Shown here one piece after another: positions 1-46,720 of a DNA stretch of 54,932 nucleotides. Each line of letters opens with the position of its first letter. Within the stretch, counting starts at the first letter, position 1. The stretch comes from a virus. Taxonomy: Duplodnaviria > Caudoviricetes. Below the pieces are notes generated by a model. The model searched no databases, was not told the origin of the DNA, and saw only the letters and a list, made by a program, of their open reading frames with translations. The DNA is taken from positions 1 to 54,932 of IMG/VR virus record IMGVR_UViG_3300010413_000058, one strand, 5' to 3'. The translations under genes were made by a program, and so were the position numbers.

Positions 1-46
1 CGGAAGCGCAAAAACAAGCACTCAGAAATCGCAAAGGAGGTAATCG

Positions 47-1099
47 ATGAAAGCGAAGGATCGTAGAAAGCGAATGAGAGAGAAGTTGGCCCAGAGACAC
101 AAGGAGGCTTACGACAGGAAAGATTCTTGGGGAGCAAGCACAGGAATATTCAAATCCCCTCTGCCTGAGGGCGTAACTATGTGGAAATGTGGTGAGGGAG
201 AACATATGGTTGATATTATCCCTTTCATTGCAGGAGATAAAATACCTCCCCCTGACAAACCTGGAGAGGAGAGCTACATATTAGACATCTGGGTCCACAA
301 CAACGTAGGTCCATCAGACGCCAGATTTGTATGTCTGTCTCGGACCCTTGAACTGCCCTGTCCTATCTGCGAAGAGCAAGACAGGATGAGAGATTCAGAT
401 GGATATGATGATGACGAGATTAAAGCCTTGAACCCCAGCCGACGGGCAATATACAATATTATCTGCCGAGACAGCCCAAAAGAGGAAGCTAAAGGCATTC
501 AAGTTTGGGAAATAGCTCACTGGTTTATGGCTAAACATCTCGACGAGAGATCGAAAAAGCCTAAAGGCGGAGGCTACATCTACTATACATTGCTCGACGA
601 AGAAGGCAAAACAGTCTATTTCAAGAGGAAAGGTACAAGTCAGAGAGGTACTGAATTTCTAGCGCACGACTTCATTGACAGAGAAGAGCCTCTGGATGAG
701 AACCTAGTAGAGAAGGCACACCCTTTGGATCAGTTAATAGCGTGGCCTTCATACGATGAAGTGTACAACGCATTTCACAAGAAACCACCAAAGGCAGAAG
801 AGCCAGAACCTGAAGCGGCAGAAGAGCAAGAACCTGAAGCGGCAGAAGAGCAAGAACCTGAAGCGGAAAAACCTGAATCGGCAGAAGAGCCAGAGCCTGA
901 AGAACCTGAAGCGGAAAAACCTGAAGCGGAAGGTGAGCTTGTTTGTCCTGGTGGAGGCAAAGTCGGAATAGACTTCGAGGAACTTGAAGCTTGCAAGAAA
1001 TGTAAAATATGGGATGAGTGTGATGAGGAGTACACTCGGATCAAAAAACGCAGGGAAGAAAAGAAAAAGCCTGAATTGGCGAGGAGGAGTGGTAAATAA
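47..1099 (+). CDS. Single-stranded DNA-binding protein, T4 gp32-like, with acidic repeat linker and C-terminal Cys cluster
   Basis: HNNVG..FVCL..CPICE Zn motif, acidic C-terminal region, position directly upstream of RecA; SD AAGGAGGT. Confidence 0.7.
   Translation: MKAKDRRKRMREKLAQRHKEAYDRKDSWGASTGIFKSPLPEGVTMWKCGEGEHMVDIIPFIAGDKIPPPDKPGEESYILDIWVHNNVGPSDARFVCLSRTLELPCPICEEQDRMRDSDGYDDDEIKALNPSRRAIYNIICRDSPKEEAKGIQVWEIAHWFMAKHLDERSKKPKGGGYIYYTLLDEEGKTVYFKRKGTSQRGTEFLAHDFIDREEPLDENLVEKAHPLDQLIAWPSYDEVYNAFHKKPPKAEEPEPEAAEEQEPEAAEEQEPEAEKPESAEEPEPEEPEAEKPEAEGELVCPGGGKVGIDFEELEACKKCKIWDECDEEYTRIKKRREEKKKPELARRSGK
793..930 (+). repeat. 24-nt tandem repeat (GGCAGAAGAGCAAGAACCTGAAGC, 3 near-identical copies plus degenerate copies) encoding the AEEQEPEA linker
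   Basis: Units at 793-816, 817-840 and 841-864, then derived 15-nt units. Confidence 0.9.
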
Positions 1100-2151
1100 T
1101 GGCAGAACTTGTCAGACGTGCCGCACAGCAAGTAGAAAATGAGGCGATGTCCGACGAGGAAAGAAAGCTTATTAACAGGAAGCTTAGTTTTGATAGGGTC
1201 ATTTCCACAGGCTCTACCCTGCTTGACCTTGCCATCAGTGGCAATAGAATACGGGGTGGAGGCATCCCTCCAGGCATTATACTTGAAATATTCGGTCCGC
1301 CTGGAGGGGGAAAGACCCAACTTCTCGTCGAGATATGTGCTTCTGCCCAAGCAAAAAAAGGTAGCGTCCGCTTCTTAGATCCAGAGGCTAGGCTAGACAA
1401 AGAATATTCTGAGCTGATGGGGATGAGTCTGCAGGAAGAATGGGCAGATTATCATAGACCTGATCTAGTAGTCCAAATGTTCAATGATTATGTCTGGCCT
1501 TGGGAACCAGAAACCTCTGACGCTATCAATGTGATAGCTGCGGATTCTTTGGCTGCTCTTAGTACCAAGCTTGAGATGGAAGACGAAGACAAAATGGGGA
1601 TGAAAAGAGCAAAAGACTTTTCGATGGGAGTCCGCAAAACATGCAGGTTAATAGCTAACAATGGATGGATTCTAGCTTGTACGAACCAATTACGACAAGG
1701 ACAACACGGCGATGTCACTCCAGGAGGAAAAGGTATTCCATATTTTGCTTCAGTGAGAATAAGAATAGCACCCAAATTCCAGAAGAATAAGATTGAAAAA
1801 ACAGTCACAGTAGATTTTGGAAAGAAGAAACAAGTAAAAGAGATCATCGGTATTATAAGTAAGTGCAAAGTAACAAAGAACACAGCCGACAATCCTTTCA
1901 GGGAAGCTCTGGTGTATATCATATTTGGCTATGGGTTCGATGATATTAGAGCAAATCTTCAATGGGCTAAGGATATGTCAGGCGACACGTCTTATGATGC
2001 CTTTACACACAAATACCAAAAGCTAGAGGATGCTGTTATTCACATTGAAAATGAAGGATTGCAAAGTAAGTTGAGGGACAAAGTGATAGATATGTGGGAA
2101 GAAATACAGGAGAAACTGAAAGTTAAAAGGGCTCCAAAAGTAAGATTCTAA
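1099..2151 (+). CDS. recA: RecA/UvsX-family recombinase
   Basis: ISTGSTLLDLAISG, Walker A EIFGPPGGGKT, ADSLAAL, NQLR, TPGGKGIPYFASVRI. Confidence 0.93.
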   Translation: MAELVRRAAQQVENEAMSDEERKLINRKLSFDRVISTGSTLLDLAISGNRIRGGGIPPGIILEIFGPPGGGKTQLLVEICASAQAKKGSVRFLDPEARLDKEYSELMGMSLQEEWADYHRPDLVVQMFNDYVWPWEPETSDAINVIAADSLAALSTKLEMEDEDKMGMKRAKDFSMGVRKTCRLIANNGWILACTNQLRQGQHGDVTPGGKGIPYFASVRIRIAPKFQKNKIEKTVTVDFGKKKQVKEIIGIISKCKVTKNTADNPFREALVYIIFGYGFDDIRANLQWAKDMSGDTSYDAFTHKYQKLEDAVIHIENEGLQSKLRDKVIDMWEEIQEKLKVKRAPKVRF

Positions 2152-2156
2152 GGGAG

Positions 2157-3035
2157 GTGATCTATTTGAAAGTCGATTATATAATTGTTGATTCCGATTT
2201 CGTCTGCTACCAAAACAAACACTCAATGAAAGAACTGTCTTGGGAAGATAAGCACACGGGAGTTATATTCGGCTTTCTAAGAGACACCTTATCTCTGGCT
2301 AAGAATCTGGAATGCAATAATTTTATATTTGTCTGGGATTCCGATAAGTCAAAAAGAAAGAAGATGTTTCCAGACTATAAAGCCAACAGAACAACCAAAG
2401 AAAAGACCCCTGAAGAGGAAGAACTGAGCAGGATTACTCATCCTCAATTTGACATAATCAGAGATGAGATACTTCCATACATCGGATTTAAAAATAACTT
2501 TATACAAGATGGCTTAGAAGGGGATGATCTGATAGCTAAGATAATCTTAGACCATGACTGGACTAACCTTGCGGTCGTAACGATAGATAGTGATCTTTAT
2601 CAGGTTCTCAGCCCTAATGTATTTATCTATAACCCCAGAAAAAAGAAAAAGTACACCCTAGATGACTTCAAAAAAGACTGGGGGATTGACCCTTGGCAAT
2701 GGTCTAACGTGCTGTCTTTAGCTGGTTGTTCTACTGACAATGTTCCAGGAATAAATGGAGTAGGTAAGCCCACCGCTGCTAAATACATTAGAGGGGAATT
2801 GCCTCCTACAAGAAAGGTCGTTCAAAGGATACAATCAAAGCAGGGCAAGGAAATAAAGAGAAGAAATGATTGGCTGGTAAAACTTCCTTTTCAAGGCACA
2901 GTTTCCATGACGATAAGAAGCAAGCAGAAGCTATCAAAGGACAGGTTTATTAAAGTATGCAGGAGATACGGATTTGAATCTTTCTTGAGGAAAAGCAAAT
3001 ATCAAGAGTGGAAGGAGGTGATGGACCTTGTCTAA
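2157..3035 (+). CDS. 5'-3' exonuclease / flap endonuclease (PolI N-terminal, T4 RNase H-like)
   Basis: VWD..RKKMFPDYKANR, EGDDLI, DSDLYQ, H3TH motif LAGCSTDNVPGINGVGKPTA. Confidence 0.92.
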   Translation: MIYLKVDYIIVDSDFVCYQNKHSMKELSWEDKHTGVIFGFLRDTLSLAKNLECNNFIFVWDSDKSKRKKMFPDYKANRTTKEKTPEEEELSRITHPQFDIIRDEILPYIGFKNNFIQDGLEGDDLIAKIILDHDWTNLAVVTIDSDLYQVLSPNVFIYNPRKKKKYTLDDFKKDWGIDPWQWSNVLSLAGCSTDNVPGINGVGKPTAAKYIRGELPPTRKVVQRIQSKQGKEIKRRNDWLVKLPFQGTVSMTIRSKQKLSKDRFIKVCRRYGFESFLRKSKYQEWKEVMDLV

Positions 3036-3576
3036 AGGTGGGGACTTCGAGTTGGAGATCACAAAAGAACTAAGTCTGTGGATAACTGATGGGAAGAGCA
3101 AAGAAGTTTTTAGAAGAGGAAGGAGAGGAGGGAGGGGAGACATAACTTACAGAGAACCTATCGGAAAACCTTTGATAGACGCTTGGAATATAGAGTGCAA
3201 GACTGGGTATTCTAGGAAATATAAAGCCACCCTTAAAAAGAAAAGGAAGATAACTAATTGGTGTATCATAGACCCGATTGACTCACGTGGATCTAACACA
3301 GTCTTTCAGGACTTCTGGGAACAGTGCGCCGAAGACGCAGACAAGACAAAAAGAATCCCTATACTCATCTTCAGGAGACCTTACATGATGACCTGTATAG
3401 CTTTCCGTCAATCCTTGTTCAACAGGATGATAGAAATATACGGTCCTCCTAGAGGTCAATATGTACTCGCCAACGTATTTGGCGAGACTTTAGCAATACA
3501 AACTCTCAAACAATTTTTTGAATGGGTTCCAAACCCAAACCTGATTTTAATGCCTAAACTGGTGAGAAGAGTATGA
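3028..3576 (+). CDS. Holliday junction resolvase-like PD-(D/E)XK nuclease
   Basis: N-terminal KGGDFELEI, GDI...IECK, FWEQC..DA...PILIFR. Confidence 0.75.
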   Translation: MSKGGDFELEITKELSLWITDGKSKEVFRRGRRGGRGDITYREPIGKPLIDAWNIECKTGYSRKYKATLKKKRKITNWCIIDPIDSRGSNTVFQDFWEQCAEDADKTKRIPILIFRRPYMMTCIAFRQSLFNRMIEIYGPPRGQYVLANVFGETLAIQTLKQFFEWVPNPNLILMPKLVRRV

Positions 3577-4688
3577 CAGTAGATGGAATAGAAATAAAAA
3601 ATGTCCAGCCACATGAACACACAATAATTGAACCTTCCAAAAGAGTAACAGTAATACAGGGCACATCTCATTCAGGAAAGTCCTCAATCGTCCGAGCAAT
3701 AAAGAAGCTCATAGAGAATAGACCTATGGGAAGAGAGGGGTTATTGTCTTGGTTTGCTAGTGACAAAGATGAAATAAGCATTGGGATGTCCTTTGAGGAA
3801 GGAACATACGTCTACAGGGAGCAAACTAAATCAGACAATAGATATACCACTAGTGAGAGCAAGAAACCGCTAAGAGCCATACGAAGTGATGTTCCAGAGG
3901 AAGTGTTGGCTATAACTAAAATGAACTCAGTTAATATACAGTCCCAGCATGACCCTTACTTCATGCTTCAAAACACTCCTGGAGAAGTTGGGCGGATGTT
4001 CAATGAAGCGGTAGGGCTGGAAATAATCGACGAAACTATTTCCCAAGCTAAAAAATTGTTCAACCTAATAAATGCTCAGAGAGCAGCTTGCTACAAGCAA
4101 GTGGAAGACTTGGAGAATGAGTTTTCTAGATACAAAGGATTAGATGAAATAAAACCTTTTATAGAAGACATAGAAAAAGCCTATGAACATTTAGGCATTC
4201 TGCAAGTCAGCAGAGAGAAGCTTCTGTCCTATTGGCTTGACATGGAAGTTCTTGAAGGAGACATTCTCTTGACGAAGGAGTTTCTCAAACTGGAAGATGA
4301 CTATAAGAAACTGCACTCCCTCGCCTCCCTCACGAATGCAAAGATTAGGAAAAGACAGGAAATATATGCCCATGTACTTGAATGGACAATGACTGAAGCC
4401 AGAATTGCTGTGAACAGAAAATGGGTAGATCAATATGAAAAATTCATAGAGATTCGGAATATCGCTCAGAACATGTCAAAATTGCGCTCAGATCGCATCA
4501 ACTTGAAACGTGTACTCAGATATATAATCGACACAAAAAACGAAATCCAAGCTAAAACCGAAGCATTATCTGACACTCGCAGAAAAATATACGAACTGTT
4601 ACAGAAGACTAAGATTTGTCCTTTCTGCTACACAGAAATTGACAGAGATACCATTGACCACATCTGCGAGAGGAGGGGGATAAAATGA
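3573..4688 (+). CDS. sbcC: SbcC/Rad50-like ATPase, N-terminal half (Walker A, Q-loop, coiled coil, zinc hook)
   Basis: IEIKNVQPH, Walker A GTSHSGKSS, IQSQHDP, long coiled coil, CPFC near the C-terminus; no Walker B. Confidence 0.85.
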   Translation: MTVDGIEIKNVQPHEHTIIEPSKRVTVIQGTSHSGKSSIVRAIKKLIENRPMGREGLLSWFASDKDEISIGMSFEEGTYVYREQTKSDNRYTTSESKKPLRAIRSDVPEEVLAITKMNSVNIQSQHDPYFMLQNTPGEVGRMFNEAVGLEIIDETISQAKKLFNLINAQRAACYKQVEDLENEFSRYKGLDEIKPFIEDIEKAYEHLGILQVSREKLLSYWLDMEVLEGDILLTKEFLKLEDDYKKLHSLASLTNAKIRKRQEIYAHVLEWTMTEARIAVNRKWVDQYEKFIEIRNIAQNMSKLRSDRINLKRVLRYIIDTKNEIQAKTEALSDTRRKIYELLQKTKICPFCYTEIDRDTIDHICERRGIK

Positions 4689-5623
4689 AGATACTGTGTG
4701 GTCCCGACTTGCACATCAGAGTAAGACCTCCAGAACACAGGATAGACGATTTTGTGGCGACACAGAAGCACAAGATAAAATGGATACTAAACCTAGCTAA
4801 GAAGAAAGATTGCAAACTAATATTGTTTCCTGGAGACCTTACAGACCATCCTAAACTTCCTCACCACATAATTGACCATTACATCAGGGTGTTCAGAAAC
4901 TACCCCAATCAAACTAAACTAGCTGTTAGAGGGCAACATGACATGCTCTACCATGTAGAGTCTGACAATACTCCTATATCAGTGATGGACGCCTCAGGGG
5001 CAGTCAACTTGATCGGCGGTGCCTACTATACTGCTTCTAGAGAGCCCAACATGGGGTGGGTCGTAATATATGGCGCAGACTTTGACCAACCCATTCCTGA
5101 AATACAGAACCCTGACCCTCTGCAAGTCAACATACTACTTATCCACAAGATGTTTGTCCTTGACAGATTGTGGGAAGGGCAGGAAGACTTTGTTAGGTCT
5201 TTGATTTTCTTGAAGACAACTAAATGGGACTTGATAGTGTCTGGTGACAATCACCAACATTATATGTCGTTCGCAAAAGGAGACAGATTTCACGTAAACT
5301 GTGGTTCTCTAATGAGACAGAGCATCGATCAAAAGAACCATAAACCTGTAGTCTACATTTACGATACAGAAGAGAGGACTCTGAAACATTATCATGTCCC
5401 CATAGATCCTATCGAGAAAGTAATGGACCTCGAGAAGGCAGAGGAAGACAAACAGCAAAGTCTAGAGCTTCAGGCATTCGTCGAAAGTATTCAGGAGACT
5501 ACAGAGATAGAAGGATTAGACTTTGTTAAGAATTTAACTAACAGACTCCAACAAGAAGATATTAGTCCAGGTGTAAAACAATTAGGAGAAGAAGTTCTAA
5601 AGAAAGCGGGTGAACTCACATGA
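4685..5623 (+). CDS. sbcD: SbcD/Mre11-like metallophosphoesterase nuclease
   Basis: DLH, GDLTD, GQHD, GDNH, NCGS motifs. Confidence 0.88.
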   Translation: MKILCGPDLHIRVRPPEHRIDDFVATQKHKIKWILNLAKKKDCKLILFPGDLTDHPKLPHHIIDHYIRVFRNYPNQTKLAVRGQHDMLYHVESDNTPISVMDASGAVNLIGGAYYTASREPNMGWVVIYGADFDQPIPEIQNPDPLQVNILLIHKMFVLDRLWEGQEDFVRSLIFLKTTKWDLIVSGDNHQHYMSFAKGDRFHVNCGSLMRQSIDQKNHKPVVYIYDTEERTLKHYHVPIDPIEKVMDLEKAEEDKQQSLELQAFVESIQETTEIEGLDFVKNLTNRLQQEDISPGVKQLGEEVLKKAGELT

Positions 5624-5880
5624 AAACAGATGAAATCATAGACAAACTGGAAGGTCTTGAGGAAGATTTTGAGGAAAAAAAGAAAAGTCTCGCTAGGGAT
5701 GAAGGCCGACTAGAATCTTTACAAGAGAGGATGGAGAAGGAGTTTGGCATTAAATCCTTGAAGAAAGCAGAGAGTGAGCTTATCAGATTGGATAAAGAGA
5801 TCGAAGAATCAGAAAAAGAACTCCACGAAAAGTACAAAAATATGAAAGAAGCGATGGAGAAGATCGATGTACAATCATAA
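5620..5880 (+). CDS. Small coiled-coil protein, possibly the middle segment of the split SbcC
   Basis: Heptad-rich E/K/L sequence, translationally coupled on both sides. Confidence 0.6.
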   Translation: MKTDEIIDKLEGLEEDFEEKKKSLARDEGRLESLQERMEKEFGIKSLKKAESELIRLDKEIEESEKELHEKYKNMKEAMEKIDVQS

Positions 5881-6487
5881 GGAATTTACAGAATACAAAA
5901 ACTGGTTTTATGAATTAGCAGGTCAACGTGATCTGCTAGAAGTTCAACTGAGAAGGGCTGAGGAAGAGAAAAACCTTCTGGATCAAGGATACGAAGATGC
6001 TTTGTTTTTAAGAGCATTAGTCCAAGAAGTAGCCCAACAGACGATGAATAATCTCTCCTATCACATATCCAATATAGTCACAGCAGCATTGAAAGCCATA
6101 CCTTTCCCTGATGCTCCTGAGTTTGAAGCCGAGTTCGTAAAAGGAAGAAATCAGGTTGAGTGTAACTTATGGTTTGTCACCAATGGCAACAAAAGCAAGC
6201 CTATAGAGTCTAGTGGAGGCGGAGCCCTCGACGTTACCTCTCTAGCATTGAGGCTCACCTACTGGTCTCTCAAAAAGAACCGACCCACCTTCATCCTCGA
6301 CGAGCCTTTCAAATACGTCTCTGTCGATCTCCAAGAGAAGTGTGCCGAGATGATCAAGATGCTGTCAGAGAGGATGGGTGTGCAGATCATTATGGTCAGT
6401 CATCTTCCCAACATCAACATCACCGCTGATAAAGAGTACAGGGTGGAGATGAAGGATGGGAAGAGTGTAGTGAAGGAAGTTAAATAG
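5867..6487 (+). CDS. sbcC: SbcC/Rad50-like ATPase, C-terminal half (ABC signature, Walker B, H-loop)
   Basis: ESSGGG signature, FILDEPF Walker B/D-loop, IIMVSH. Confidence 0.88.
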   Translation: MYNHKEFTEYKNWFYELAGQRDLLEVQLRRAEEEKNLLDQGYEDALFLRALVQEVAQQTMNNLSYHISNIVTAALKAIPFPDAPEFEAEFVKGRNQVECNLWFVTNGNKSKPIESSGGGALDVTSLALRLTYWSLKKNRPTFILDEPFKYVSVDLQEKCAEMIKMLSERMGVQIIMVSHLPNINITADKEYRVEMKDGKSVVKEVK

Positions 6488-6498
6488 CATTTTAGCCA

Positions 6499-6536
6499 TG
6501 GGAACATCAGTAAGTGGGGGCCGACACCGCTGGCAT
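6499..6536 (+). repeat. Structured intergenic element, copy 1 (3' half only); 38-bp exact repeat of 7036-7073
   Basis: TGGGAACATCAGTAAGTGGGGGCCGACACCGCTGGCAT is identical at both sites. Confidence 0.9.
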
Positions 6537-6555
6537 CTTTTGGAGGGAGTGATGT

Positions 6556-6942
6556 ATGGAAGAAGTAAAGAAAACAATACAAAGGTTACGGGATTATGTT
6601 GATGATGATCGTATAGTGGGTTACAGGCCCAGTGTACTCACCAGACCCATCTGTCGGTCAGACATTATCTTGGTATTGAAGCGCATCTCCGAGCTTGAAA
6701 AGCGCATCTCCGAGTTGGAGGATATGGTTGAAGTTGCTAGGTCAGTAAGAAAGGAAAGAATTAGAGAGCTTGAGCAGCAACTTATAATTAAATCAATTGA
6801 AGAACGTAGGGAAGAAGCACTAAAAATTGTTAAGAAATATACTGAAGAATACAAAAAGCTTGAGCAGGAGAACGCTCGGCTTCGTGAGGAAATTAAGGAA
6901 TTGAAACTCCGAATTGCTGATATGGAAACTTATTTACAGTAG
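6556..6942 (+). CDS. Hypothetical coiled-coil protein
   Basis: ORF with GGAGGGAG RBS; KRISELE duplicated (21-nt tandem at about 6679-6720). Confidence 0.7.
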   Translation: MEEVKKTIQRLRDYVDDDRIVGYRPSVLTRPICRSDIILVLKRISELEKRISELEDMVEVARSVRKERIRELEQQLIIKSIEERREEALKIVKKYTEEYKKLEQENARLREEIKELKLRIADMETYLQ

Positions 6943-6960
6943 ATGAGAGTGATGACACTT

Positions 6961-7080
6961 TGCCAGCGGTCTGCTTGGAAGCTATACGGCCTAGGACGCA
7001 TAGTGGAGGGCAGTGTGGGGGAGGACAGTCGGCATTGGGAACATCAGTAAGTGGGGGCCGACACCGCTGGCATTTAAGGA
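6961..7080 (+). ncRNA. Structured intergenic element, copy 2 (putative cis-acting RNA or DNA hairpin)
   Basis: TGCCAGCGGT (6961-6970) pairs with ACCGCTGGCA (7063-7072); inner stem GTCGGC (7028-7033)/GCCGAC (7057-7062); followed by TTTAAGGAG RBS. Confidence 0.65.
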
Positions 7081-7091
7081 GGGAGAAAGAA

Positions 7092-7268
7092 ATGGCAGAT
7101 GCAGATGATAAAATCATACCTTGGATTCCAGAGGATCAAGGAGAGGGTATTAAGGATTTCTTTTCTGGGTATGTAACACGTTGCCCGAAATGTAACTCTA
7201 TGAATATTTGGCAGATGTTTATGGCTCATTACGGCTGTTTAGACTGTAAGCATAAATGGGGGGAGTGA
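7092..7268 (+). CDS. Small zinc-ribbon protein (58 aa, MADADDK...)
   Basis: RBS AAGGAGGGAG then ATG at 7092; CPKC...CLDC. Confidence 0.7.
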   Translation: MADADDKIIPWIPEDQGEGIKDFFSGYVTRCPKCNSMNIWQMFMAHYGCLDCKHKWGE

Positions 7269-7474
7269 TGGATAAGCCTTGGATAGTTGGAAGATGGGAT
7301 ATTTGCCCAAAACTTCATGCAATGAATGACATGGGCATTGATTCAGAGCGAACCACAAAAGCAGGTAGGCGTATTTATAGCAGAACACGTACCTATAATG
7401 CCGAATGCTATGCTGAAAAAGATGGAGAAAGGTGTACTCGTCGTGGAAGGTGTATCTTGGCATACACAGACTAG
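7268..7474 (+). CDS. Small hypothetical Cys-containing protein
   Basis: TGATG stop/start coupling at 7266-7270. Confidence 0.6.
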   Translation: MDKPWIVGRWDICPKLHAMNDMGIDSERTTKAGRRIYSRTRTYNAECYAEKDGERCTRRGRCILAYTD

Positions 7475-7490
7475 GCAGTGGGGGTGAGGG

Positions 7491-7634
7491 ATGGAAATCA
7501 TTGTTGAGTGCGTAGAGTGTGGTTCAATACTAGAGCAAAACAAAACCACGATAAAATGGGGAGATGTAGTTATCCAAGTGATTCCATGCGACTGCATTAA
7601 TATGGAGCCAGAAATCGCCAAACAAGCATTGTAG
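7491..7634 (+). CDS. Small zinc-ribbon protein (47 aa), absent from the ORF track
   Basis: MEIIVECVECGSIL...IPCDC; GGTGAGGG upstream. Confidence 0.65.
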   Translation: MEIIVECVECGSILEQNKTTIKWGDVVIQVIPCDCINMEPEIAKQAL

Positions 7635-7635
7635 G

Positions 7636-7720
7636 AATAAGTCCAGCGGTCCCGAAAGGGTGGGCATGGGATGTCGGCACAAGGAAGGCGTGGGAGCTGA
7701 CACCGCTGGCATTTAAGGAG
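7636..7720 (+). ncRNA. Structured intergenic element, copy 3
   Basis: CCAGCGGT (7643-7650)/ACCGCTGG (7702-7709); CCC-GAAA-GGG hairpin; GTCGGC (7673-7678)/GCTGAC (7696-7701); then CATTTAAGGAG. Confidence 0.65.
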
Positions 7721-7726
7721 AAAGTG

Positions 7727-7894
7727 ATGAGTTGGACAAAAGTGGGAAGTTGCCCTCATTGTGGGGCACCAATTTATGAACCAATGGTCTGGCATGGAGT
7801 ATTGCCGCCACCGCCGCAATACACTTGTGCCTGTGCGCCAAAAGTGGAAACAAAGACAAAGTGGAAACAAAGACAAGCAATAATACAAGTATAG
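7727..7894 (+). CDS. Small zinc-ribbon protein (55 aa); C-terminus frameshifted by a 17-bp duplication
   Basis: MSWTKVGSCPHCGAPIY...YTCAC; RBS AAGGAG. Confidence 0.65.
   Translation: MSWTKVGSCPHCGAPIYEPMVWHGVLPPPPQYTCACAPKVETKTKWKQRQAIIQV
7841..7874 (+). repeat. 17-bp perfect tandem duplication, AAAGTGGAAACAAAGAC x2
   Basis: 7841-7857 is identical to 7858-7874. Confidence 0.95.
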
Positions 7895-7897
7895 ATA

Positions 7898-8000
7898 AAT
7901 AAGTCCAGCGGTCTAGGTGCTGATGAAGAGGGTGGGCTGTCAGCTTAAACTACTGGATAAAGCAGAATAGGGGTAGGTCGACACCGCTGCATTTAAGGAG
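7898..8000 (+). ncRNA. Structured intergenic element, copy 4
   Basis: AATAAGTCCAGCGGTC identical to 7636-7651; CAGCGGT/ACCGCTG stem; GTCAGC (7939-7944)/GTCGAC (7977-7982); then CATTTAAGGAG. Confidence 0.65.
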
Positions 8001-8006
8001 GGAGTA

Positions 8007-8120
8007 ATGACAGTAAAATGCCGTAATTGTGGTTATATATGGAAGGGAAAGATAAGAGAACCCGCTCCAATGTATTGTCCTTGTTGCAACCATACTGCGT
8101 GTTGGTGGACATTCTGGTAG
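8007..8120 (+). CDS. Tiny zinc-ribbon protein (37 aa), absent from the ORF track
   Basis: MTVKCRNCGYIW...MYCPCC; RBS AAGGAGGGAG. Confidence 0.65.
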   Translation: MTVKCRNCGYIWKGKIREPAPMYCPCCNHTACWWTFW

Positions 8121-8148
8121 ATTTGAAAAGGGTTTACAGGAGTAGGAG

Positions 8149-8547
8149 ATGAGTGATTATATAGTTCAGCATGTTATGGAGATTGTGAAAAAAATACACG
8201 ATGATACTGGGGTGAGATTGAAAGAGTTCTCAGTGACATGGGGGTACAGCTTAGATATAGGTCGCTGTTTCGTTGGTGGAGGCAGGGTTGAAGTCTTCCC
8301 ACTAGAAGGCCATCAGTTAGATGCGGACTACTTCACTCGCATTATAGACACTGCTAGTAAGGCTTACGAGAGATGGAATGTGATGTTTAAAAAATTCACT
8401 TTTGATTGGAAAGATGACGAATTAGAAGGGTGTCACTATAGGTGGGAAAGGGAAGAAGATGAGCAAACAAGCGAAGAGAGGACGGAAGTCGAAGAAGGAA
8501 CAGAAGAAAGCCAAAAAGAGAAGGATGAAGAAAAGCAGAAAAGGTAA
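8149..8547 (+). CDS. Hypothetical protein with acidic tail
   Basis: ORF with AGGAG RBS. Confidence 0.65.
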   Translation: MSDYIVQHVMEIVKKIHDDTGVRLKEFSVTWGYSLDIGRCFVGGGRVEVFPLEGHQLDADYFTRIIDTASKAYERWNVMFKKFTFDWKDDELEGCHYRWEREEDEQTSEERTEVEEGTEESQKEKDEEKQKR

Positions 8548-8560
8548 GGGTGGGAAATGA
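8459..8560 (+). CDS. Possible overlapping, highly basic 33-aa peptide MSKQAKRGRKSKKEQKKAKKRRMKKSRKGKGGK
   Basis: Stop overlaps the next ATG (ATGA 8557-8560); purine-rich upstream. Confidence 0.4.
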   Translation: MSKQAKRGRKSKKEQKKAKKRRMKKSRKGKGGK

Positions 8561-8715
8561 GGCCTCCCTCATGGATGGATCAGGGTAAATACTGCCTTCT
8601 CTACAAAGAGTGCGGATGGTTTAAGGTAGAACAATTCATCAAAGAAGGTAGCTGTCATCTGAGATTAAAATGCACAGGGACATGGCACAGTTGCCCTATG
8701 AGGAAAAGAAAATGA
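8557..8715 (+). CDS. Small Cys-rich protein (52 aa), absent from the ORF track
   Basis: MRPPSWMDQGKYCLLYKECGW...SCPMRKRK; ATGA coupling to the next gene. Confidence 0.55.
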   Translation: MRPPSWMDQGKYCLLYKECGWFKVEQFIKEGSCHLRLKCTGTWHSCPMRKRK

Positions 8716-8852
8716 GAACTCGATGCTGCAAGTGTGGAATTAAGTACAGTAAGAAAAAAGGTAAGGGTCTAACGTGGAGAGACAGATTTGAGAATGAACA
8801 CTGGACATGCGACAAGTGCGTCCCAAAATTAGGATGGAGACAGGGAAAATGA
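8712..8852 (+). CDS. Small zinc-finger protein
   Basis: MRTRCCKC...TCDKC; ATGA overlaps at both ends. Confidence 0.6.
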   Translation: MRTRCCKCGIKYSKKKGKGLTWRDRFENEHWTCDKCVPKLGWRQGK

Positions 8853-9121
8853 TAGAAATACAATACGCTAAATCTTCCTCGTTGAAGATTGAGCTAATAC
8901 GGTTTTTTAATAAAGGAAAATCGCAACTTGCCTTAGTCAAGTGCTCTTTACTTATAAATGGAATTCCTATTGCAGAAACCACTAAGGCTTTGGAAGCAGG
9001 TAGTACATTGGAATTTTCTAACCATCAAGCCGTTATGAATCAGATAAGTTACGAAGGATTGGAGCCTTTACTCGAAAACATCGAGAAGGTTAAAGGCCTG
9101 CTCTTACCTACAGGAGAATAA
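8849..9121 (+). CDS. Hypothetical protein
   Basis: ATGA-coupled start MIEIQY. Confidence 0.55.
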   Translation: MIEIQYAKSSSLKIELIRFFNKGKSQLALVKCSLLINGIPIAETTKALEAGSTLEFSNHQAVMNQISYEGLEPLLENIEKVKGLLLPTGE

Positions 9122-9150
9122 AGAAAATGATAACCAAAGGAGGTGATAGC

Positions 9151-9447
9151 ATGAAACTGAAAACCATCCTACCACTGCTAGTTATATTTGCTCTCGCAAT
9201 CCCCCTAAAGCCAACGAATTTGAAAGCAGATAGGGAATCCTATAAAGAGCACGTATTCGATGAGTTGAGGAAAGATATAGACAAGAGTCCATATTACTCC
9301 AGAAGAGAAAAAGCCGACATGAAAGTCAAACTATACGAGAAGATGTATGGAAAAGACGACTTCGAGATACCCCTTATTGCATGGTTGGGCATCATTCTGG
9401 CTATAATTGGGTGCAAGATTGCGATTAAATTAGGGAAACAAAAATGA
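9151..9447 (+). CDS. Membrane-anchored protein (signal peptide plus C-terminal TM helix)
   Basis: SD AAGGAGGTGA; MKLKTILPLLVIFALA; hydrophobic C-terminus followed by KLGKQK. Confidence 0.7.
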   Translation: MKLKTILPLLVIFALAIPLKPTNLKADRESYKEHVFDELRKDIDKSPYYSRREKADMKVKLYEKMYGKDDFEIPLIAWLGIILAIIGCKIAIKLGKQK

Positions 9448-9611
9448 AAGTGCCATTCGGGAAATTTAAAGGGTTAGACATAGAGGAAGTACCCTCTAGA
9501 TACCTCCTCTATCTGACGGAACAGGACTGGTTTAACGACAAGTTTGTGCAACTGTCGAATGAAGTGGTGAAAGAGTTGGAGTGGAGAGATAAATGGGACA
9601 AGCACATTTAA
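9444..9611 (+). CDS. Small protein with a PFGKxKG motif (DUF3820 / ExoX C-terminal-like), absent from the ORF track
   Basis: MKVPFGKFKGLDIEEVPSRYLLYL. Confidence 0.7.
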   Translation: MKVPFGKFKGLDIEEVPSRYLLYLTEQDWFNDKFVQLSNEVVKELEWRDKWDKHI

Positions 9612-9943
9612 CCATCACTATCCTTATCCCGCAATTTTATCCCCAGTGCTTTTTCGTAACTCTCAATCTTAGAATTAGGAATTTTTGCATTTTCACACAG
9701 ATCAGCCATAATAAGATTACCCAACATCAACCGTGCATTTATCATCTCTAATGTTCTGTTTAACTTCTCCCGAAACTCCTTCTGTTCCTTTGCTCTACGT
9801 GCAAGATTTTCCATGCAAACCTCGCATTGCTCCTTTGTTACGAACTTCTTCTCCATGCGGTGAGCATCCCAGAGCCTTGTGATACCAAAAGTTAACAGAA
9901 CTGACACTCCAACTGCCATTCCAACTGCTGTCGCAATTTCCAT
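9608..9943 (-). CDS. Membrane protein in the lysis region (N-terminal TM plus coiled coil)
   Basis: One TM helix, FVTKEQC motif, last gene of the late operon. Confidence 0.6.
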   Translation of the reverse strand: MEIATAVGMAVGVSVLLTFGITRLWDAHRMEKKFVTKEQCEVCMENLARRAKEQKEFREKLNRTLEMINARLMLGNLIMADLCENAKIPNSKIESYEKALGIKLRDKDSDG

Positions 9944-9954
9944 CTTCCCGAGCC

Positions 9955-10230
9955 CTATGATCTAGGCCGTGCTACAGCCCGAGTAACTTCATAGAGCCCA
10001 GTAGCAGCCGCACCTTGAACAAGTCCATACAAACTATAATCTACGATGTTTACTATAGTCCAAGGAAGCCCCTGATATGGAATAGCTAGTATCCCAAGCC
10101 CAAGTCCTGCCAAAAGGGCGATAAGAGACTTCCACCTATCCTGAACAGCGGGAGCAAATTTGAAAGCAATACTTAGGAATAGCATCAAGATGACAGGCAA
10201 CGCATATTTACCAAAAGTTACTTCGTCCAT
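9955..10230 (-). CDS. Putative holin
   Basis: 91 aa, three hydrophobic segments, GLVQGAAATGLYE, basic C-terminus. Confidence 0.75.
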   Translation of the reverse strand: MDEVTFGKYALPVILMLFLSIAFKFAPAVQDRWKSLIALLAGLGLGILAIPYQGLPWTIVNIVDYSLYGLVQGAAATGLYEVTRAVARPRS

Positions 10231-10242
10231 TACCCACCTCCT

Positions 10243-10419
10243 TTACTCTGGAACCTCAGGCAGTTTCTCGGAAGGACGCTTGAAGTGCTCCATTTTCACT
10301 GTAGCCCAATTAGCATCGATCACCGACTCATCCACCCCTGCCGTCTGTAGATACTGCAACACTAGCCCTATCATTGAAAACCCTAAACTTATTGCCATTT
10401 CCACTGCTTCATCTCCCAT
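10243..10419 (-). CDS. Small hypothetical protein (58 aa), absent from the ORF track
   Basis: SD AAGGAG; MGDEAVEMAISLGFSMIGLVLQYL...; fills the gap exactly. Confidence 0.65.
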   Translation of the reverse strand: MGDEAVEMAISLGFSMIGLVLQYLQTAGVDESVIDANWATVKMEHFKRPSEKLPEVPE

Positions 10420-10431
10420 AGTTGTACTCCT

Positions 10432-10782
10432 TTACATTGGGTACACCCCGAGTTGGTTCAAAAACATTATGAGTTCACTTTCGAGGTTGGGTGGGACTTG
10501 CCCGTCTAGCTCCACAACAGGTATAAGAGATTGAATAGTCTTGTCCAACCCTACTAGAGCCACTCTCTTCTGCCTGAGATACTCTTTTTGTCCTTCAGTG
10601 AGATCAGGTCTCACCACAGACACCATATACTTGTCGTACTCGGCTTTGTAGACGTTCATGGCGTAGGTCATCTTCTTCTTAGCTGACCAAGTAGTGAAGG
10701 GCTGCTCCTTTGCCTGTTGAAACGCAGCACACCCAACCACAAAAATAAGAATCAATAACAGCGAAACCCTTTTTCTCAACAT
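10432..10782 (-). CDS. Lipoprotein (possible spanin-like lysis accessory)
   Basis: MLRKRVSLLLILIFVVGC lipobox; SD AAGGAGGTGA. Confidence 0.65.
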   Translation of the reverse strand: MLRKRVSLLLILIFVVGCAAFQQAKEQPFTTWSAKKKMTYAMNVYKAEYDKYMVSVVRPDLTEGQKEYLRQKRVALVGLDKTIQSLIPVVELDGQVPPNLESELIMFLNQLGVYPM

Positions 10783-10787
10783 ACCTC

Positions 10788-11132
10788 TCACCTCCTTCTG
10801 ATTGTCCTCGAATCATGCACCTGATAGTGTAAGTGCAAACCCTGCCCTGTATCGTGAAAGATGCAAACTTTCTTATCAAGGCGAGTAGGGTCGTAAATCC
10901 ACCTATCATTCATCTTTCTCTCTATCTCATTCCCTAAACTCAATATATGACACCCCTCATCGATGCCCCTTAGAGGGATGACTTCGTGGACGCTAGAAGG
11001 AGGTCCATCTGGAATGCGATACAAACTCGTTATCCGCCCAATGTAATCAGGGAACTCTATGGCCCGATCCATCATCAAATTAATCATATCTCTGTGGATA
11101 AACTTGAGATTGTATAAATCTATCAACCACAT
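10788..11132 (-). CDS. Putative endolysin, peptidase M15-like Zn peptidase
   Basis: ITSLYR...SVH...RGID...HLHYQV; adjacent to the holin and lipoprotein. Confidence 0.65.
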   Translation of the reverse strand: MWLIDLYNLKFIHRDMINLMMDRAIEFPDYIGRITSLYRIPDGPPSSVHEVIPLRGIDEGCHILSLGNEIERKMNDRWIYDPTRLDKKVCIFHDTGQGLHLHYQVHDSRTIRRR

Positions 11133-14934: not shown

Positions 14935-15238
14935 CTCTAAAAATCCTCTCTATCCAATCATCTGGTAATGCAGAGATCGGTCCGTGTAGAGATTGACATC
15001 CGGGTACGGAGGTGGACATAGCAGGCCACTCGAATATATTCCCACAAGTCCTGCAAATATACTTGACAAATTTCAACCTGTACCCTTTAACTACTTTAAC
15101 ATCTCCATATTGAACTACACAGGGTTCGTATCCTGGAGGACACTTCTCATAATAAGGATTAGCATCTGAAATCTTTATCTCATATTTCATCTCCGAATCA
15201 GTCAACCCATAATAATCGTTGTATTTTACATCACACAT
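14912..15238 (-). CDS. Hypothetical zinc-ribbon protein
   Basis: YICRTCGNIFEW...PGC. Confidence 0.5.
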   Translation of the reverse strand: MCDVKYNDYYGLTDSEMKYEIKISDANPYYEKCPPGYEPCVVQYGDVKVVKGYRLKFVKYICRTCGNIFEWPAMSTSVPGCQSLHGPISALPDDWIERIFRDEKSKDT

Positions 15239-15863
15239 CTTTTTTCACCTCTTCTACCTTCTCCAGCACAACCTCTAGGTCCCCGTCAGAAGCATAGGTG
15301 GGAAACTTCTTATCAATGTGCCAAGGTTTAGGTTTGTAAATCTCCCACAAAGGAAATCGTGGGTCAAAATACTGCCACGTATATTCATTTGCGGGGTTGC
15401 AGTGAGTTGGATCTTGGACGAATCTGTGATTGCACCCGTATGGCATAGATATTGCCAACTGCCCACCAACTCTAGCAATTCTCCACACCTCATTCATCCA
15501 ATCAATGACAAACCATGGTTTGATATGCTCAAAAACATGGCTTGCGACTATAGTTATACAGCACCCATCGGGGAGGGGCCATGGAAATATCTCCATGTCC
15601 CAAACGATGTCAACTCCTGGGAGGGCTCGAATGTCCAGATTGACAAAATTGGGCATAATATTTGATCCACACCCAACATTCAACAATATCCCGCCCTTTT
15701 CCTCGATGACTGCTTGCACTTTTTTCGTCGAAAGGTCCGCAACATCGGACCTCTGTTGTTTACCATGCACAGGGCACTCCTTTGCTTCCACTAGATCGCA
15801 AAAGCAATCGTGGTTGTTAAGCTGAAGTTGTCTGGATTTGCCACTCATAAGTAAATTGTACAT
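15231..15863 (-). CDS. Class I SAM-dependent methyltransferase (start uncertain)
   Basis: LNVGCG, NLDI..LPGVDIVWD, ASHVFEHI, EVWRI...GG, QDPTH. Confidence 0.85.
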   Translation of the reverse strand: MYNLLMSGKSRQLQLNNHDCFCDLVEAKECPVHGKQQRSDVADLSTKKVQAVIEEKGGILLNVGCGSNIMPNFVNLDIRALPGVDIVWDMEIFPWPLPDGCCITIVASHVFEHIKPWFVIDWMNEVWRIARVGGQLAISMPYGCNHRFVQDPTHCNPANEYTWQYFDPRFPLWEIYKPKPWHIDKKFPTYASDGDLEVVLEKVEEVKKDV

Positions 15864-17266: not shown

Positions 17267-17820
17267 TAGGGTAGCTCCTCTCGTCCTAGCAATACTTTCA
17301 ATCTCTCGTTGTAGGGTTTGTAGTAATCAAGAAGTAAACTCCTAACTTCATCATCCATCACTTCTGGGTACTCAGAGATGGATGAATGTTTGGGGAAATC
17401 AGGAAAGGTAACTTTGGGCTCCAATCCCAACCAGTTCTGCACATCAATGAAATACTGATTCGGAGTGGAATAGAACTCTTTCGTGAAATATATCCTGAAT
17501 TGCTGTCGATGAGACACCGAGAACCACCTCTCTAAATGATCTACATATCTCCCTCTCGACAGATAGGAGAAAAAGAACTGGCTACAAAAACATGCTTCAC
17601 TTCTCTGTATAGCCACGAAGGGTAATTTTTCAATTTTATTTATCAATACCTCATGCCAATAAAGAGACCATGCTCCGCTGACAGGCTCCCTCAGAAGGAC
17701 TATAAACCTAGCATCGGGACATGCCCTCTTAATTCTTTCCTCCACTCCTTCTATATCGAAGTATTCAGGGCTTGCATAGAACCCCATTTTTCCATGTATG
17801 AATAAATTAGGCTTTCCCAC
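17266..17820 (-). CDS. Sulfotransferase-like protein with an apparent internal deletion of the 5'-PAPS-binding loop
   Basis: ASPEY..PDARFIVLLREPVSGAWSLY, YLSRGRY..HLERW, YYKPYNERL; no KxGTT motif. Confidence 0.75.
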   Translation of the reverse strand: MGKPNLFIHGKMGFYASPEYFDIEGVEERIKRACPDARFIVLLREPVSGAWSLYWHEVLINKIEKLPFVAIQRSEACFCSQFFFSYLSRGRYVDHLERWFSVSHRQQFRIYFTKEFYSTPNQYFIDVQNWLGLEPKVTFPDFPKHSSISEYPEVMDDEVRSLLLDYYKPYNERLKVLLGREELP

Positions 17821-42081: not shown

Positions 42082-43316
42082 TACTTCAATTTCTCCTTAT
42101 CCTTATACTTCGCTTCCATCATGTCCCTCAATTCAACTATCCTCTCTGAAGACAGTCCTTCAGTGGACACAGTGGATTTGTAACTACCAGGAATCCCTTT
42201 GTACCACATTGGGGCACTATTGTATTGGAACTTTATGTCCCAGAGTTCTGGTTTCTCGAAGACAGGTGATCCTGGTAGCGGCTGGAAAACCGTGAAATCA
42301 ACGTCATCGGGTCTCGCCTCCTCGATCCACCTTTGTGTATCCAATATAGTGCCTTCAGTCTCTCCAGGTAGACCAACGATAAGAAACGCCTTGCATCTGA
42401 TTCCTGCTTTTCTGAGTGCCCATACAGCCTCAAGATTGCGTTGCGTAGTCGTTCCTTTGAGGTTCTTTTGGAGTATTTCGTCTGATCCACTCTCTACCCC
42501 CATTCCGACCTCTACTACACCCATTCGGGCTAAGTAGCTGGCAGTCTGGTCGTCTATAAGGTTGGACCGAGCAAAACACCTGAACCTGTAATCCTTCTGT
42601 CCAAAATATTCAGCTAACTCTCTTGTCCTCTTCCTACTCGTTACAAATACGTCATCAAAGATCATAAAAGCCTCAAACCCATATTCTTTATTCAAATGCT
42701 CGACTTCTCTGATCACGTATTTGGAGGAGGCTTGACGAAACTTTCGGGTTATTCTGGCGCAGAAGGAACAATGAAATGGGCAACCCCTCGAAGTCATCAG
42801 CGTAGTGGCGGGGCGAGAATCGATTGTGTAGTGATATTTCTTGATGTCAATGAGATCACGGGCAGGAAGGGGGAGGCGATCTATAGAGACTAAATCCGAC
42901 GTATTCCCAAGCACTTTCTCGTCACATTGCATCCCGCTTGTAAGATATAACATCAGAGCAGTCAACGCCATCTCCCCTTCGCCCTTGATCACATAATCAA
43001 AACCATTCTCAATGCACTCATGGGGCATATGGGTAGCGTGAGGTCCTCCTGCTATTAGAGTCTTTCCCTCTTTCTTCAACTGCCTAGCTATCCTATATGC
43101 TTGATCTCTCTGTGGGGTAGTCAGTGAGATACCTACTATGTTAGATTCCACTCTAACCAAATCATTGAAATCCGCAGCAGCCAAATCAATCACCTGAACC
43201 GTATATCCCCAATCTCTCAACACAGCCGCAAGATAAAGTATCCCAAGAGGGGGAAACACCTCTTGATCAATCAGAAAAGGACTGCTGGGGAATATTAAGG
43301 AAATGTCACAAGTCAT
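42081..43316 (-). CDS. Cobalamin-binding radical SAM protein
   Basis: PPLGILYLAA, GGPHAT, GEGE B12 domain; TSRGCPFHCSFC; GVESGS; IVGLPGET. Confidence 0.93.
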   Translation of the reverse strand: MTCDISLIFPSSPFLIDQEVFPPLGILYLAAVLRDWGYTVQVIDLAAADFNDLVRVESNIVGISLTTPQRDQAYRIARQLKKEGKTLIAGGPHATHMPHECIENGFDYVIKGEGEMALTALMLYLTSGMQCDEKVLGNTSDLVSIDRLPLPARDLIDIKKYHYTIDSRPATTLMTSRGCPFHCSFCARITRKFRQASSKYVIREVEHLNKEYGFEAFMIFDDVFVTSRKRTRELAEYFGQKDYRFRCFARSNLIDDQTASYLARMGVVEVGMGVESGSDEILQKNLKGTTTQRNLEAVWALRKAGIRCKAFLIVGLPGETEGTILDTQRWIEEARPDDVDFTVFQPLPGSPVFEKPELWDIKFQYNSAPMWYKGIPGSYKSTVSTEGLSSERIVELRDMMEAKYKDKEKLK

Positions 43317-43860
43317 ATCTTAACCTCTGAAACACCACATCAATCGTACAGGATCTATCATGGGGTATAGTGTCAATTTGAACTAACTTCAATAGGGGAA
43401 GGCGGGTCATTATATTCTGAATAAAAGGTTTTCCCACATTTACTTGATGGCTGGGATTTCCCCCTTCTTCTACCGTAGCATACCTTCCCCCTTGCATGTC
43501 AGGGAGCAGGAGAACTAAATACCCTTCAGGTCTGATCAATCTTCTCGCCCATCCATTGAGACAAGCAATGATTTCGTTTTCTGTTGGCAGGTCTTCAACC
43601 ATGTGGCTGCTGAAGACAAAATCGACAGGCTCGTAATGTACATACCGCACAGCATCCCAGTGAATAAACCTTCCCTCTGGAACTTGCATTTCACAAAGGG
43701 GTTGAGGAGATATGTCAACATGATAACAATCACCCAGAAGAAGAGGGCAACTGCCGCAGCCCATATCAAGACCCCGACCCTGAAGATAAGCCGCAACGTG
43801 TCCAACATTGAAGTCGAACTCGACCCTGACATTTTTTACGTCCTCCAAGCTATACTCCAT
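43306..43860 (-). CDS. SAM-dependent methyltransferase
   Basis: GLDMGCG, DFVFSSHMVED, IRPEGYLVLLLPD. Confidence 0.85.
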   Translation of the reverse strand: MEYSLEDVKNVRVEFDFNVGHVAAYLQGRGLDMGCGSCPLLLGDCYHVDISPQPLCEMQVPEGRFIHWDAVRYVHYEPVDFVFSSHMVEDLPTENEIIACLNGWARRLIRPEGYLVLLLPDMQGGRYATVEEGGNPSHQVNVGKPFIQNIMTRLPLLKLVQIDTIPHDRSCTIDVVFQRLRYDL

Positions 43861-46708: not shown

Positions 46709-46720
46709 GATTGTACTCCT

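Follow-up and report, generated by a model that had tools for sequence, protein, structure and literature searches.

What heads each translation unit in an array of very small phage genes, and what allows such genes to be exchanged while their neighbours stay in place? This question is raised by the IMG/VR virus record IMGVR_UViG_3300010413_000058 (Duplodnaviria; Caudoviricetes), which we analyzed over its whole length of 54,932 bases (hereafter, the window; estimated completeness ∼65%), and in which an earlier note had pointed out a repeated, apparently structured element at 6499-8006 on the plus strand. Four copies of this element, each consisting of conserved arms around a variable interior, lie between the stop codon of one gene and the ribosome-binding site (RBS) of the next, and the break points of a mosaic relative and of population variants cluster at them. 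The reading we prefer, to which we give a probability of roughly 45%, is that of a boundary cassette, specific to its lineage, that belongs to the early operon of an uncultured siphovirus-like phage. The interpretation of the earlier note, an RNA motif or alternatively a recombination site for gene cassettes, is partly supported.

The element is present in three full copies and one 3′ half, and its described architecture, an outer stem, an abutting inner stem and a variable interior placed between stop codon and RBS, proved real when arms were located exactly and pairs counted. The 5′ arm CCAGCGGT(C) is found exactly at 6963, 7643, and 7905, and at no other plus-strand site of the window. The 3′ motif GACACCGCTG occurs exactly at 6523, 7060, 7699, and 7980, as does GCATTTAAGGAG at 7070, 7709, and 7989. 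The 16-mer CCGACACCGCTGGCAT of the 3′ block, searched with up to three mismatches, gives 3 matches versus 0.11 expected, a number reached by 0 of 100 shuffles; the count of CCAGCGGTC with one mismatch allowed (7 versus 6.0 expected) is not above chance. The signal therefore resides in exact copies and their fixed arrangement, not in the mismatch-tolerant count of CCAGCGGTC. Both the repeat and its complementary arms are unique to 6499-7990 within the 54.9-kb contig.

Copy 1 (6499-6536; all copies, leaders, and array genes are on the plus strand) is a 3′ half only, made of part of the loop, the inner 3′ arm GCCGAC, the outer 3′ arm ACCGCTGG, and CAT. Copy 2 (6963-7070) is full, with outer arms at 6963-6970 and 7063-7070 that pair at 8 of 8 positions, and inner arms at 7028-7033 and 7057-7062 that pair at 6 of 6, leaving a bulge arm of 57 nt and a loop of 23 nt. 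The outer arms of copy 3 (7643-7709; arms at 7643-7650 and 7702-7709) likewise form 8 of 8 pairs, and its inner arms (7673-7678 and 7696-7701) five Watson-Crick pairs and one G-U pair; its 5′ bulge measures 22 nt and its loop 17 nt, and a hairpin, CCCGAAAGGG, is found at 7651-7660. In copy 4 (7905-7989) one G of the 3′ outer arm is deleted, leaving 7 of 8 pairs between 7905-7912 and 7983-7989, and the inner arms (7939-7944 and 7977-7982) form four Watson-Crick pairs, one G-U pair, and one A-C mismatch, with a 5′ bulge of 26 nt and a loop of 32 nt. The inner-stem variants largely keep pairing, as the earlier note had said, in copy 3 through its G-U pair and in copy 4 with a G-U pair accompanied by the mismatch. 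The loops had also been described as unrelated. The interiors are indeed variable, but copy 1 is identical at 38 of 38 positions to 7036-7073, the 3′ part of copy 2 including its loop, and copies 3 and 4 have in common AATAAGT before the 5′ arm and GGGTGGGC inside. The 3′ strand of both stems is contiguous (GCCGACACCGCTGG), whereas an arm of 22-57 nt interrupts the 5′ strand, which gives the predicted fold the shape of a Y. Five further pairs (UAAGU with AUUUA) can lengthen the outer helix of copies 3 and 4, its foot then reaching the first base of the Shine-Dalgarno sequence, and up to 19 stacked pairs are possible with the AAUAAGU/CAUUUA extension.

The position of the copies is as constant as their arms. 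A TAG stop codon precedes each of them (6485-6487, 6940-6942, 7632-7634, and 7892-7894), a GGAG-type RBS follows at 4-6 nt from the copy end, and the ATG codons of the next genes lie at 6556, 7092, 7727, and 8007 (genes A, B, E, and F; we letter the array genes A to F in their order). The leader of copy 1 (6537-6555) is of the CTTTTGGAGG type and carries a Shine-Dalgarno sequence; those of copy 2 (7071-7091, with an extended Shine-Dalgarno sequence) and copy 4 (7990-8006) read CATTTAAGGAGG, and that of copy 3 (7710-7726) reads CATTTAAGGAG. All copies are sense-oriented and occupy the sole large gaps of the plus-strand operon; array genes without an element, such as B, C, and D, are coupled or nearly so.

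A comparison with the one other contig that carries the element (loci L122 and L127) showed what happens around it. This relative has two 3′-half copies, each before a Shine-Dalgarno sequence and an ATG, and both are followed by a leader of the CTTTTGGAGG type. Its upstream genes are ∼70% identical to those of the window, and the segment 6197-6554, from inside the gene for the C-terminal half of SbcC (SbcC-C) through half-copy 1, is 90% identical to L127 12186-12544. After its half-copy 1, L127 continues with a different Zn-ribbon gene, then a minimal 3′ block of 28 nt with a CACCTTTTGGAGG leader, then an unrelated gene, and it ends in gene E, 100% identical to window 7715-7858, with no element in front. 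Homology thus stops at 6554 and resumes at 7715, with unrelated small genes in between, and therefore breaks exactly at the 3′ edge of elements. The expectation of the earlier note, that downstream open reading frames would vary between relatives with break points at the element, is borne out by this comparison as well as by the population contigs described below. The 3′ half stands alone three times in these two contigs, and again in population variants, so that the conserved 3′ block, and not the hairpin, is the minimal unit. Separately, the step in identity from ∼70% to 90% in the middle of SbcC-C (6197 versus L127) represents a mosaic joint within a conserved gene.

The array region is present in near-identical form in 16 DNA runs from six studies labelled as soil, marine sediment, mangrove, and others, with at least 0.82 of the sampled words of 6300-8300, and four metatranscriptome runs contain parts of it. 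We compared contigs from two RNA-library and two DNA runs over 5600-8800; in these runs the array is broken up into short contigs that contain many joints. In a purely descriptive count, 11 of 16 joint end points fall within the four elements and their leaders (372 of the 3201 bases compared), three coincide with the RBS of gene C or D, and two lie inside gene A. The joints are placed at the edges of several blocks and at RBS micro-homologies, not at one fixed nucleotide, and those with short sides may come from relatives. In a contig of 302 nt, half-copy 1 is joined to gene C, which is followed by the 3′ part of copy 3, and genes A, B, and D as well as both 5′ arms are missing; its first joint was found in two runs of two studies, its second in three runs. 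Gene A is absent from variant arrays through the joint from 6544 to 7261, gene C lies directly 3′ of a 3′-half copy in variant arrays, and variants from three runs lack gene D along with the 5′ arm of copy 3 (joint from 7477 to 7660). Other contigs differ in the element itself: in one, the two outer arms enclose a new interior of 37 nt, and in others the halves of the inner stem are unchanged but the bulge arm or the loop between them is new. Among the loose contig ends, the copy 3 block is followed by the other leader type and a different gene, and a short-loop variant of the inner hairpin precedes gene F. The conserved blocks (5′ arm, inner-stem region, 3′ block, and leaders) thus recur in nature in many combinations, and arms that remain constant where interiors are replaced suggest a constraint on the arms.

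The element is extremely restricted, to two contigs among everything searched. In a complete scan of IMG/VR, a 17-mer gave 35 stretches, among which L127 alone (same contig as L122) has two copies, and a degenerate pattern of 20 letters, fitting each of the six known copies, gave two, L127 and one chance match. The 14-mer GACACCGCTGGCAT is found in at least 118 IMG/VR stretches, with chance-type single matches among those listed; the look-alike L073 was rejected, as it sits within a coding region. The 20-letter pattern matched 40 stretches in GTDB genome contigs (one genome per species), all of them single, and no 5′ arm lies within 160 nt in any of the 41 GTDB loci checked (L173-L213), several matches being placed in a conserved enzyme gene. 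The element was found in none of 18 metagenome loci with SbcC-C relatives (33-61% identity), and a blastn search in distant mode of 4600-9000 against 50,697 phage records gave zero matches. MAFFT misplaces the 5′ arm of copy 2, and a covariance model was hence built from copies 3 and 4 (19 pairs); run on the window and 20 related loci (205,468 bases), it matched its two training copies and copy 2 (E = 0.017), and nothing else.

At the RNA level, the minimum-energy fold retains both stems in copies 2 and 3. The G-U pair of copy 3 exists on the plus-strand transcript only, which favors a sense RNA over DNA or the antisense strand; this support, like that from the constancy of the arms, is thin because the folding z-scores are only −1.93, −1.26, and −0.09. 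The motif had been called unrecognized, and Rfam 15 indeed gave 0 matches at gathering score over the whole window; relaxing the search to E ≤ 10 over 6400-8200 produced four chance-level matches, the best with E = 3.2 over 15 nt. No tRNA or tmRNA was found in the window, and no terminator-like site on the plus strand of the copies, where no U-run follows the stem. Several other candidates were rejected. G-runs are present, yet the loops of a G-quadruplex would be 15-40 nt long; the Chi-like AGCGG in the arm occurs 28 times in the window versus 27.9 expected; and the frame of a short peptide that would be encoded by the 3′ block, ending at the TAA of CATTTAAGG, is lost in copy 4 and in the relative.

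In this reading, the 3′ block, G-N-Y-Y-GACACCGCTGGCA, is the minimal unit of the cassette; a short U/A-rich spacer links it to a strong Shine-Dalgarno sequence, and it stands at the head of every translation unit in the array. The upstream arm of the full copies, (AATAAGT)CCAGCGGT, and their inner arm GTCGGC complement this block, and the sense transcript could optionally close into a Y-shaped intercistronic hairpin with two variable arms. Hairpin and leader would then act in cis on a polycistronic early mRNA, possibly as a processing or stability signal, or as an insulator of translation starts. The conserved blocks would at the same time offer short homologies by which micro-genes are swapped, deleted, or inserted through homologous recombination; exchange at the blocks is proposed because these are the sole conserved DNA between otherwise unrelated micro-genes. 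The RecA-like recombinase, gp32-like single-stranded DNA-binding protein (SSB), PDDEXK nuclease, and SbcCD encoded directly upstream may carry out this exchange, a pathway that we infer.

Several points weigh against the boundary-cassette reading. The folding z-scores given above are weak, near those of shuffles, and no stem has a compensatory base change, copy 4 even having its A-C mismatch; the covariation for which the earlier note had proposed a test was not seen, the arms being invariant or changed on one side only in a comparison limited to the copies, as homologues come from one close relative and the arms hardly vary. Copy 1, the two copies of the relative, and population variants all retain the 3′ half alone, which makes the hairpin dispensable. 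The closest relative by SbcC-C (L155, 61% identity) goes straight into small Cys-rich genes with no element. Some joints use RBS micro-homology and not the element, such as that from 6544 to 7261 with its 10 shared letters. Finally, the repeats themselves break contigs and map as joints, so that the enrichment of end points is descriptive and carries no independent test, and contigs are silent on transcription and on RNA ends, strands, and levels, all the more since RNA libraries can contain DNA; stretches that they leave uncovered carry no information either.

We weighed four rival explanations, which rank as follows: a promoter or operator, a functionless remnant, a recombination site, and a ribozyme or riboswitch. 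According to the first, the element acts at the DNA level, its 3′ block being a promoter or operator for a phage- or host-specific transcription factor, sigma factor, or polymerase, and the cassette would then be a true one of the promoter early stem-loop (PeSL) type. Copies do head every unit of the array, and the 3′ block keeps its sequence where the partner arm is missing; a promoter, a stem-loop, and a Shine-Dalgarno sequence are united in PeSLs. Moreover, a distant relative (L169, 34% identity in SbcC-C) has three cassettes of 96 nt right after the SbcC-C stop, at the same position, and judged by its sequence this appears to be a PeSL-like promoter cassette where the window has its element. 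The cassettes of L169 (5506-5601, 7151-7246, and 7727-7822 of that locus) each consist of an A/T palindrome and a predicted sigma-70-like TTGACG-17-TACATT; L169 also has a duplication of 179 nt with 98% identity (5602-5780 and 7824-8002). Against a promoter in the window, however, a scan of 1-11000 with the sigma-70 consensus, which may differ from that of the host, gave no plus-strand site in 6499-6555, 6963-7091, 7643-7726, or 7905-8006. The block also lies 4-6 nt from the Shine-Dalgarno sequence, which leaves hardly any room for a start site and a leader, and no RNA polymerase, sigma factor, or repressor family was found among the scanned proteins of this ∼65% complete contig. A likeness to the −24 box of sigma-54 promoters (TGGCAY) was discarded, as GC is missing at −12 by eye, and transcription would be predicted to start on the ATG itself. 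Altogether, we regard a promoter or operator as unlikely.

The second explanation denies the element any selected function: the copies would be leftovers of serial duplication and illegitimate recombination in an accessory region that evolves fast, kept because good ribosome-binding sites carry them along, and the hairpin would have arisen by chance from an inverted duplication in an ancestor. This would fit the confinement of the element to two contigs, the tolerance of truncated copies, the absent covariation and weak z-scores, and the perfect 38-nt duplication shared by copies 1 and 2, which looks recent. It accounts poorly, however, for what is seen in several population variants and among the three full copies of the window, where unrelated sequence has taken the place of the interiors between unchanged arms, as a constraint on the arms would lead one to expect. 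The spacing to the Shine-Dalgarno sequence is also fixed, and an exact 8-nt complement of the 3′ arm, expected 0.47 times per window from base composition, is found upstream of three copies. A mere remnant thus seems improbable to us.

A third explanation, already considered in the earlier note, is a dedicated recombination site, in which a folded single-stranded hairpin similar to attC or to a repetitive extragenic palindrome (REP) would be used by a site-specific recombinase or HUH enzyme to move cassettes. The conserved stems with variable loops and one bulged strand do recall attC, inverted arms flank genes (3′ arm, gene, next 5′ arm), and cassette content differs between genomes. Yet the 50 window proteins scanned (from part of the open reading frames of a contig ∼65% complete) include no member of an integrase, serine recombinase, or transposase family, the attC R-box consensus is missing from the arms by eye, and no target-site duplication is visible. 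The joints are moreover scattered over block edges and RBS micro-homologies, and the deletions from 6544 to 7261 and from 7477 to 7660 do not run from arm to arm. The attC-like proposal was accordingly not upheld, and we consider such a site very unlikely. A bolder variant, which we also hold to be quite improbable though conceivable, is that a phage-borne cassette system that follows the logic of an integron uses the Y-shaped hairpins as its dedicated exchange sites and is run by the upstream RecA-like recombinase, SSB, PDDEXK resolvase, and split SbcCD, with conserved arms selected for recombination as such and not for gene expression. If true, such a system would keep reshuffling Zn-ribbon micro-proteins, possibly host-takeover or anti-defence factors, in natural populations.

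The conserved core of hammerhead ribozymes reads CUGAUGA ... GAAA, and although the three-stem layout with variable peripheral arms, the CTGATGA of copy 4, and the GAAA loop of copy 3 might evoke a self-cleaving ribozyme or a ligand-binding riboswitch built on a three-way junction, this can be dismissed as highly improbable: CTGATGA is found in copy 4 only, junction nucleotides differ among the three copies, no such family matched even at E ≤ 10, and half copies do without two of the three stems.

The boundary cassettes, as we prefer to read them, thus head an array of micro-genes of 37-128 amino acids (aa), the majority with CxxC pairs, that lies 3′ of a recombination module. The gene downstream of the element had been said to be usually a Zn-ribbon gene. 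Copy 1, however, is followed by gene A (6556-6942), which encodes a coiled-coil protein of 128 aa with no family above cut-off. Gene B (7092-7268) encodes 58 aa with a Zn-ribbon-like CxxC...CxxC pattern; gene C (7268-7474; 68 aa), whose start overlaps the stop of B, has no relative in IMG/VR; gene D (7491-7634) encodes 47 aa and gene E (7727-7894) 55 aa, both with CxxC...CxC; and gene F (8007-8120; 37 aa) encodes a rubredoxin-like Zn ribbon, with a Pfam match below cut-off. One RNA-library contig omits 90 nt in gene A (6766-6857), between two similar stretches of its coiled-coil region, at a joint with 11 shared letters. Gene E carries near its 3′ end a perfect tandem duplication of 17 nt (7841-7874) that shifts the reading frame of the tail, and one RNA-library contig lacks one duplication unit, with 17 letters omitted at 7841. 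A homologue of gene E (L215 928-1041; 71% identity over 38 aa) lies on a viral contig of high GC content, among entirely different genes and without an element; this micro-protein therefore travels between very different phages.

The recombination module (plus strand, 47-6487) encodes a gp32-like SSB, a RecA-family recombinase, a 5′-3′ exonuclease, a PDDEXK nuclease, and SbcCD. SbcC is split around SbcD: its N-terminal ATPase half (3573-4688) is followed by the SbcD-like nuclease (4685-5623), an open reading frame for a coiled coil of 86 aa (5620-5880), and the C-terminal ATPase half (5867-6487). The same order (window 3573-6487) is found in the relative contig at L122 3716-6600. Within the gp32-like gene, 758-938 consists of repeats with a 24-nt period in which GAA, GAG, CCT, and GCG codons (Glu, Pro, and Ala) are abundant. 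The structural genes, of siphovirus type, lie on the minus strand from ∼10 kb (tape measure, central tail fibre, major head protein, and head protease), as does a weak holin match. Among them are genes for glycosyl-, methyl-, and sulfo-transferases (15234-15863, 17269-17820, and 43309-49113 of the window), which hint at the modification of the virion itself or of a surface polymer of the host. Cultured phages are all distant: the capsid and RecA-like proteins have their best cultured-phage matches below 35% identity and in mixed hosts.

How does this element compare with known systems? In T4-type phages, PeSLs lie between the stop codon and the Shine-Dalgarno sequence, form stem-loops with G-T pairs, and mediate insertions and deletions in hyperplastic regions (Arbiol et al. 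2010, PMC2839356; Comeau et al. 2014, PMC4122927). Terminator or attenuator activity and the formation of mini-circles also belong to the traits of PeSLs. The likeness to the element is considerable: both are repeated composite cassettes that extend from the stop of one small gene to the Shine-Dalgarno sequence and start of the next, both have a stem-loop with G-T or G-U pairs in a region of small orphan genes, and in both the cassettes mark the break points where close relatives differ by an insertion, deletion, or replacement. The element differs in having no sigma-70-like promoter, the defining feature of a PeSL, and in a stem-loop that has long variable interiors and no U-run and is not terminator-like. 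The phage is moreover siphovirus-like and not T4-like, and four copies in one array stand against ∼50 PeSLs per genome. The element thus works like a PeSL but is not a PeSL, because it has no sigma-70-like promoter and no terminator-like stem-loop.

A second parallel is found in cluster K mycobacteriophages, whose start-associated sequences (SAS) are asymmetric motifs in one orientation at the translation start of some non-structural genes, with a 13-bp consensus, GGGATAGGAGCCC, that tolerates up to 2 mismatches and lies 3-8 bp upstream of the start codon; about half of the copies are extended (ESAS) by an extra upstream inverted repeat, with imperfect arms of 17 bp and a variable spacer of 4-13 bp, and a role in expression is suspected (PMC3203893; PMC12699233). 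The element resembles them in being a start-associated asymmetric motif of which part of the copies have an upstream inverted repeat and a variable spacer. However, GGGATAGGAGCCC includes the Shine-Dalgarno sequence, whereas the block of the element lies upstream of it and is unrelated in sequence, and the leaders of the element, CATTTAAGGAGG or CATCTTTTGGAGG, do not match the consensus. A bulge interrupts its arms of 8 + 6 bp, and 51-92 nt separate the outer ones, in contrast to ESAS, and it is found in two contigs, whereas SAS are conserved across a whole phage cluster.

The early RNase III sites of T7, which the earlier note had brought up, are intercistronic hairpins in an early polycistronic transcript, where about two turns of interrupted double-stranded RNA are cleaved by RNase III. 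They are similar to the element in being intercistronic hairpins related by duplication just upstream of the next RBS; the predicted helix of the element differs from them in its length of 8 + 6 bp (up to 19 bp in copies 3 and 4) and in its interruption by an arm of 22-57 nt. Integron attC sites, with their core sites R″ and R′ (RYYYAAC ... GTTRRRY), come with an adjacent IntI tyrosine recombinase and attI. They share with the element imperfect inverted repeats, a variable center, and arrays of small promoterless genes of varying content. Unlike attC, the arms of the element (CCAGCGGT and ACCGCTGG) have no R′/R″ consensus, the 50 scanned proteins include no IntI-type integrase, the joints do not fall at one crossover point, and the element lies 5′ of its gene, fused to the RBS. 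Nor does it resemble a miniature inverted-repeat transposable element or REP-like hairpin, since its flanks AAGT and CATT are unduplicated, its interiors are dissimilar, and no transposase family is present in the scanned proteins.

No description of the element was found among works on SAS, on PeSLs and shuffling in T4-type phages, and on intergenic stem-loop repeats of phages. The element is real and well delimited, and as a regulatory boundary cassette mediating modular shuffling it is apparently undescribed in its phage type and anatomy. Arrays of orphan micro-genes hold much of the repertoire with which phages take over their hosts and counter their defences, and the turnover of these arrays is poorly understood outside T4-like phages. 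With the comparison made here, the view that regulatory cassettes serve as recombination linkers would reach a new type of phage and a different anatomy, that of a Y-shaped hairpin with no recognizable sigma-70 promoter. It also offers a natural system in which the role of a cassette in expression could be separated from its role in recombination, and may thereby shed light on the still unexplained SAS and ESAS motifs.

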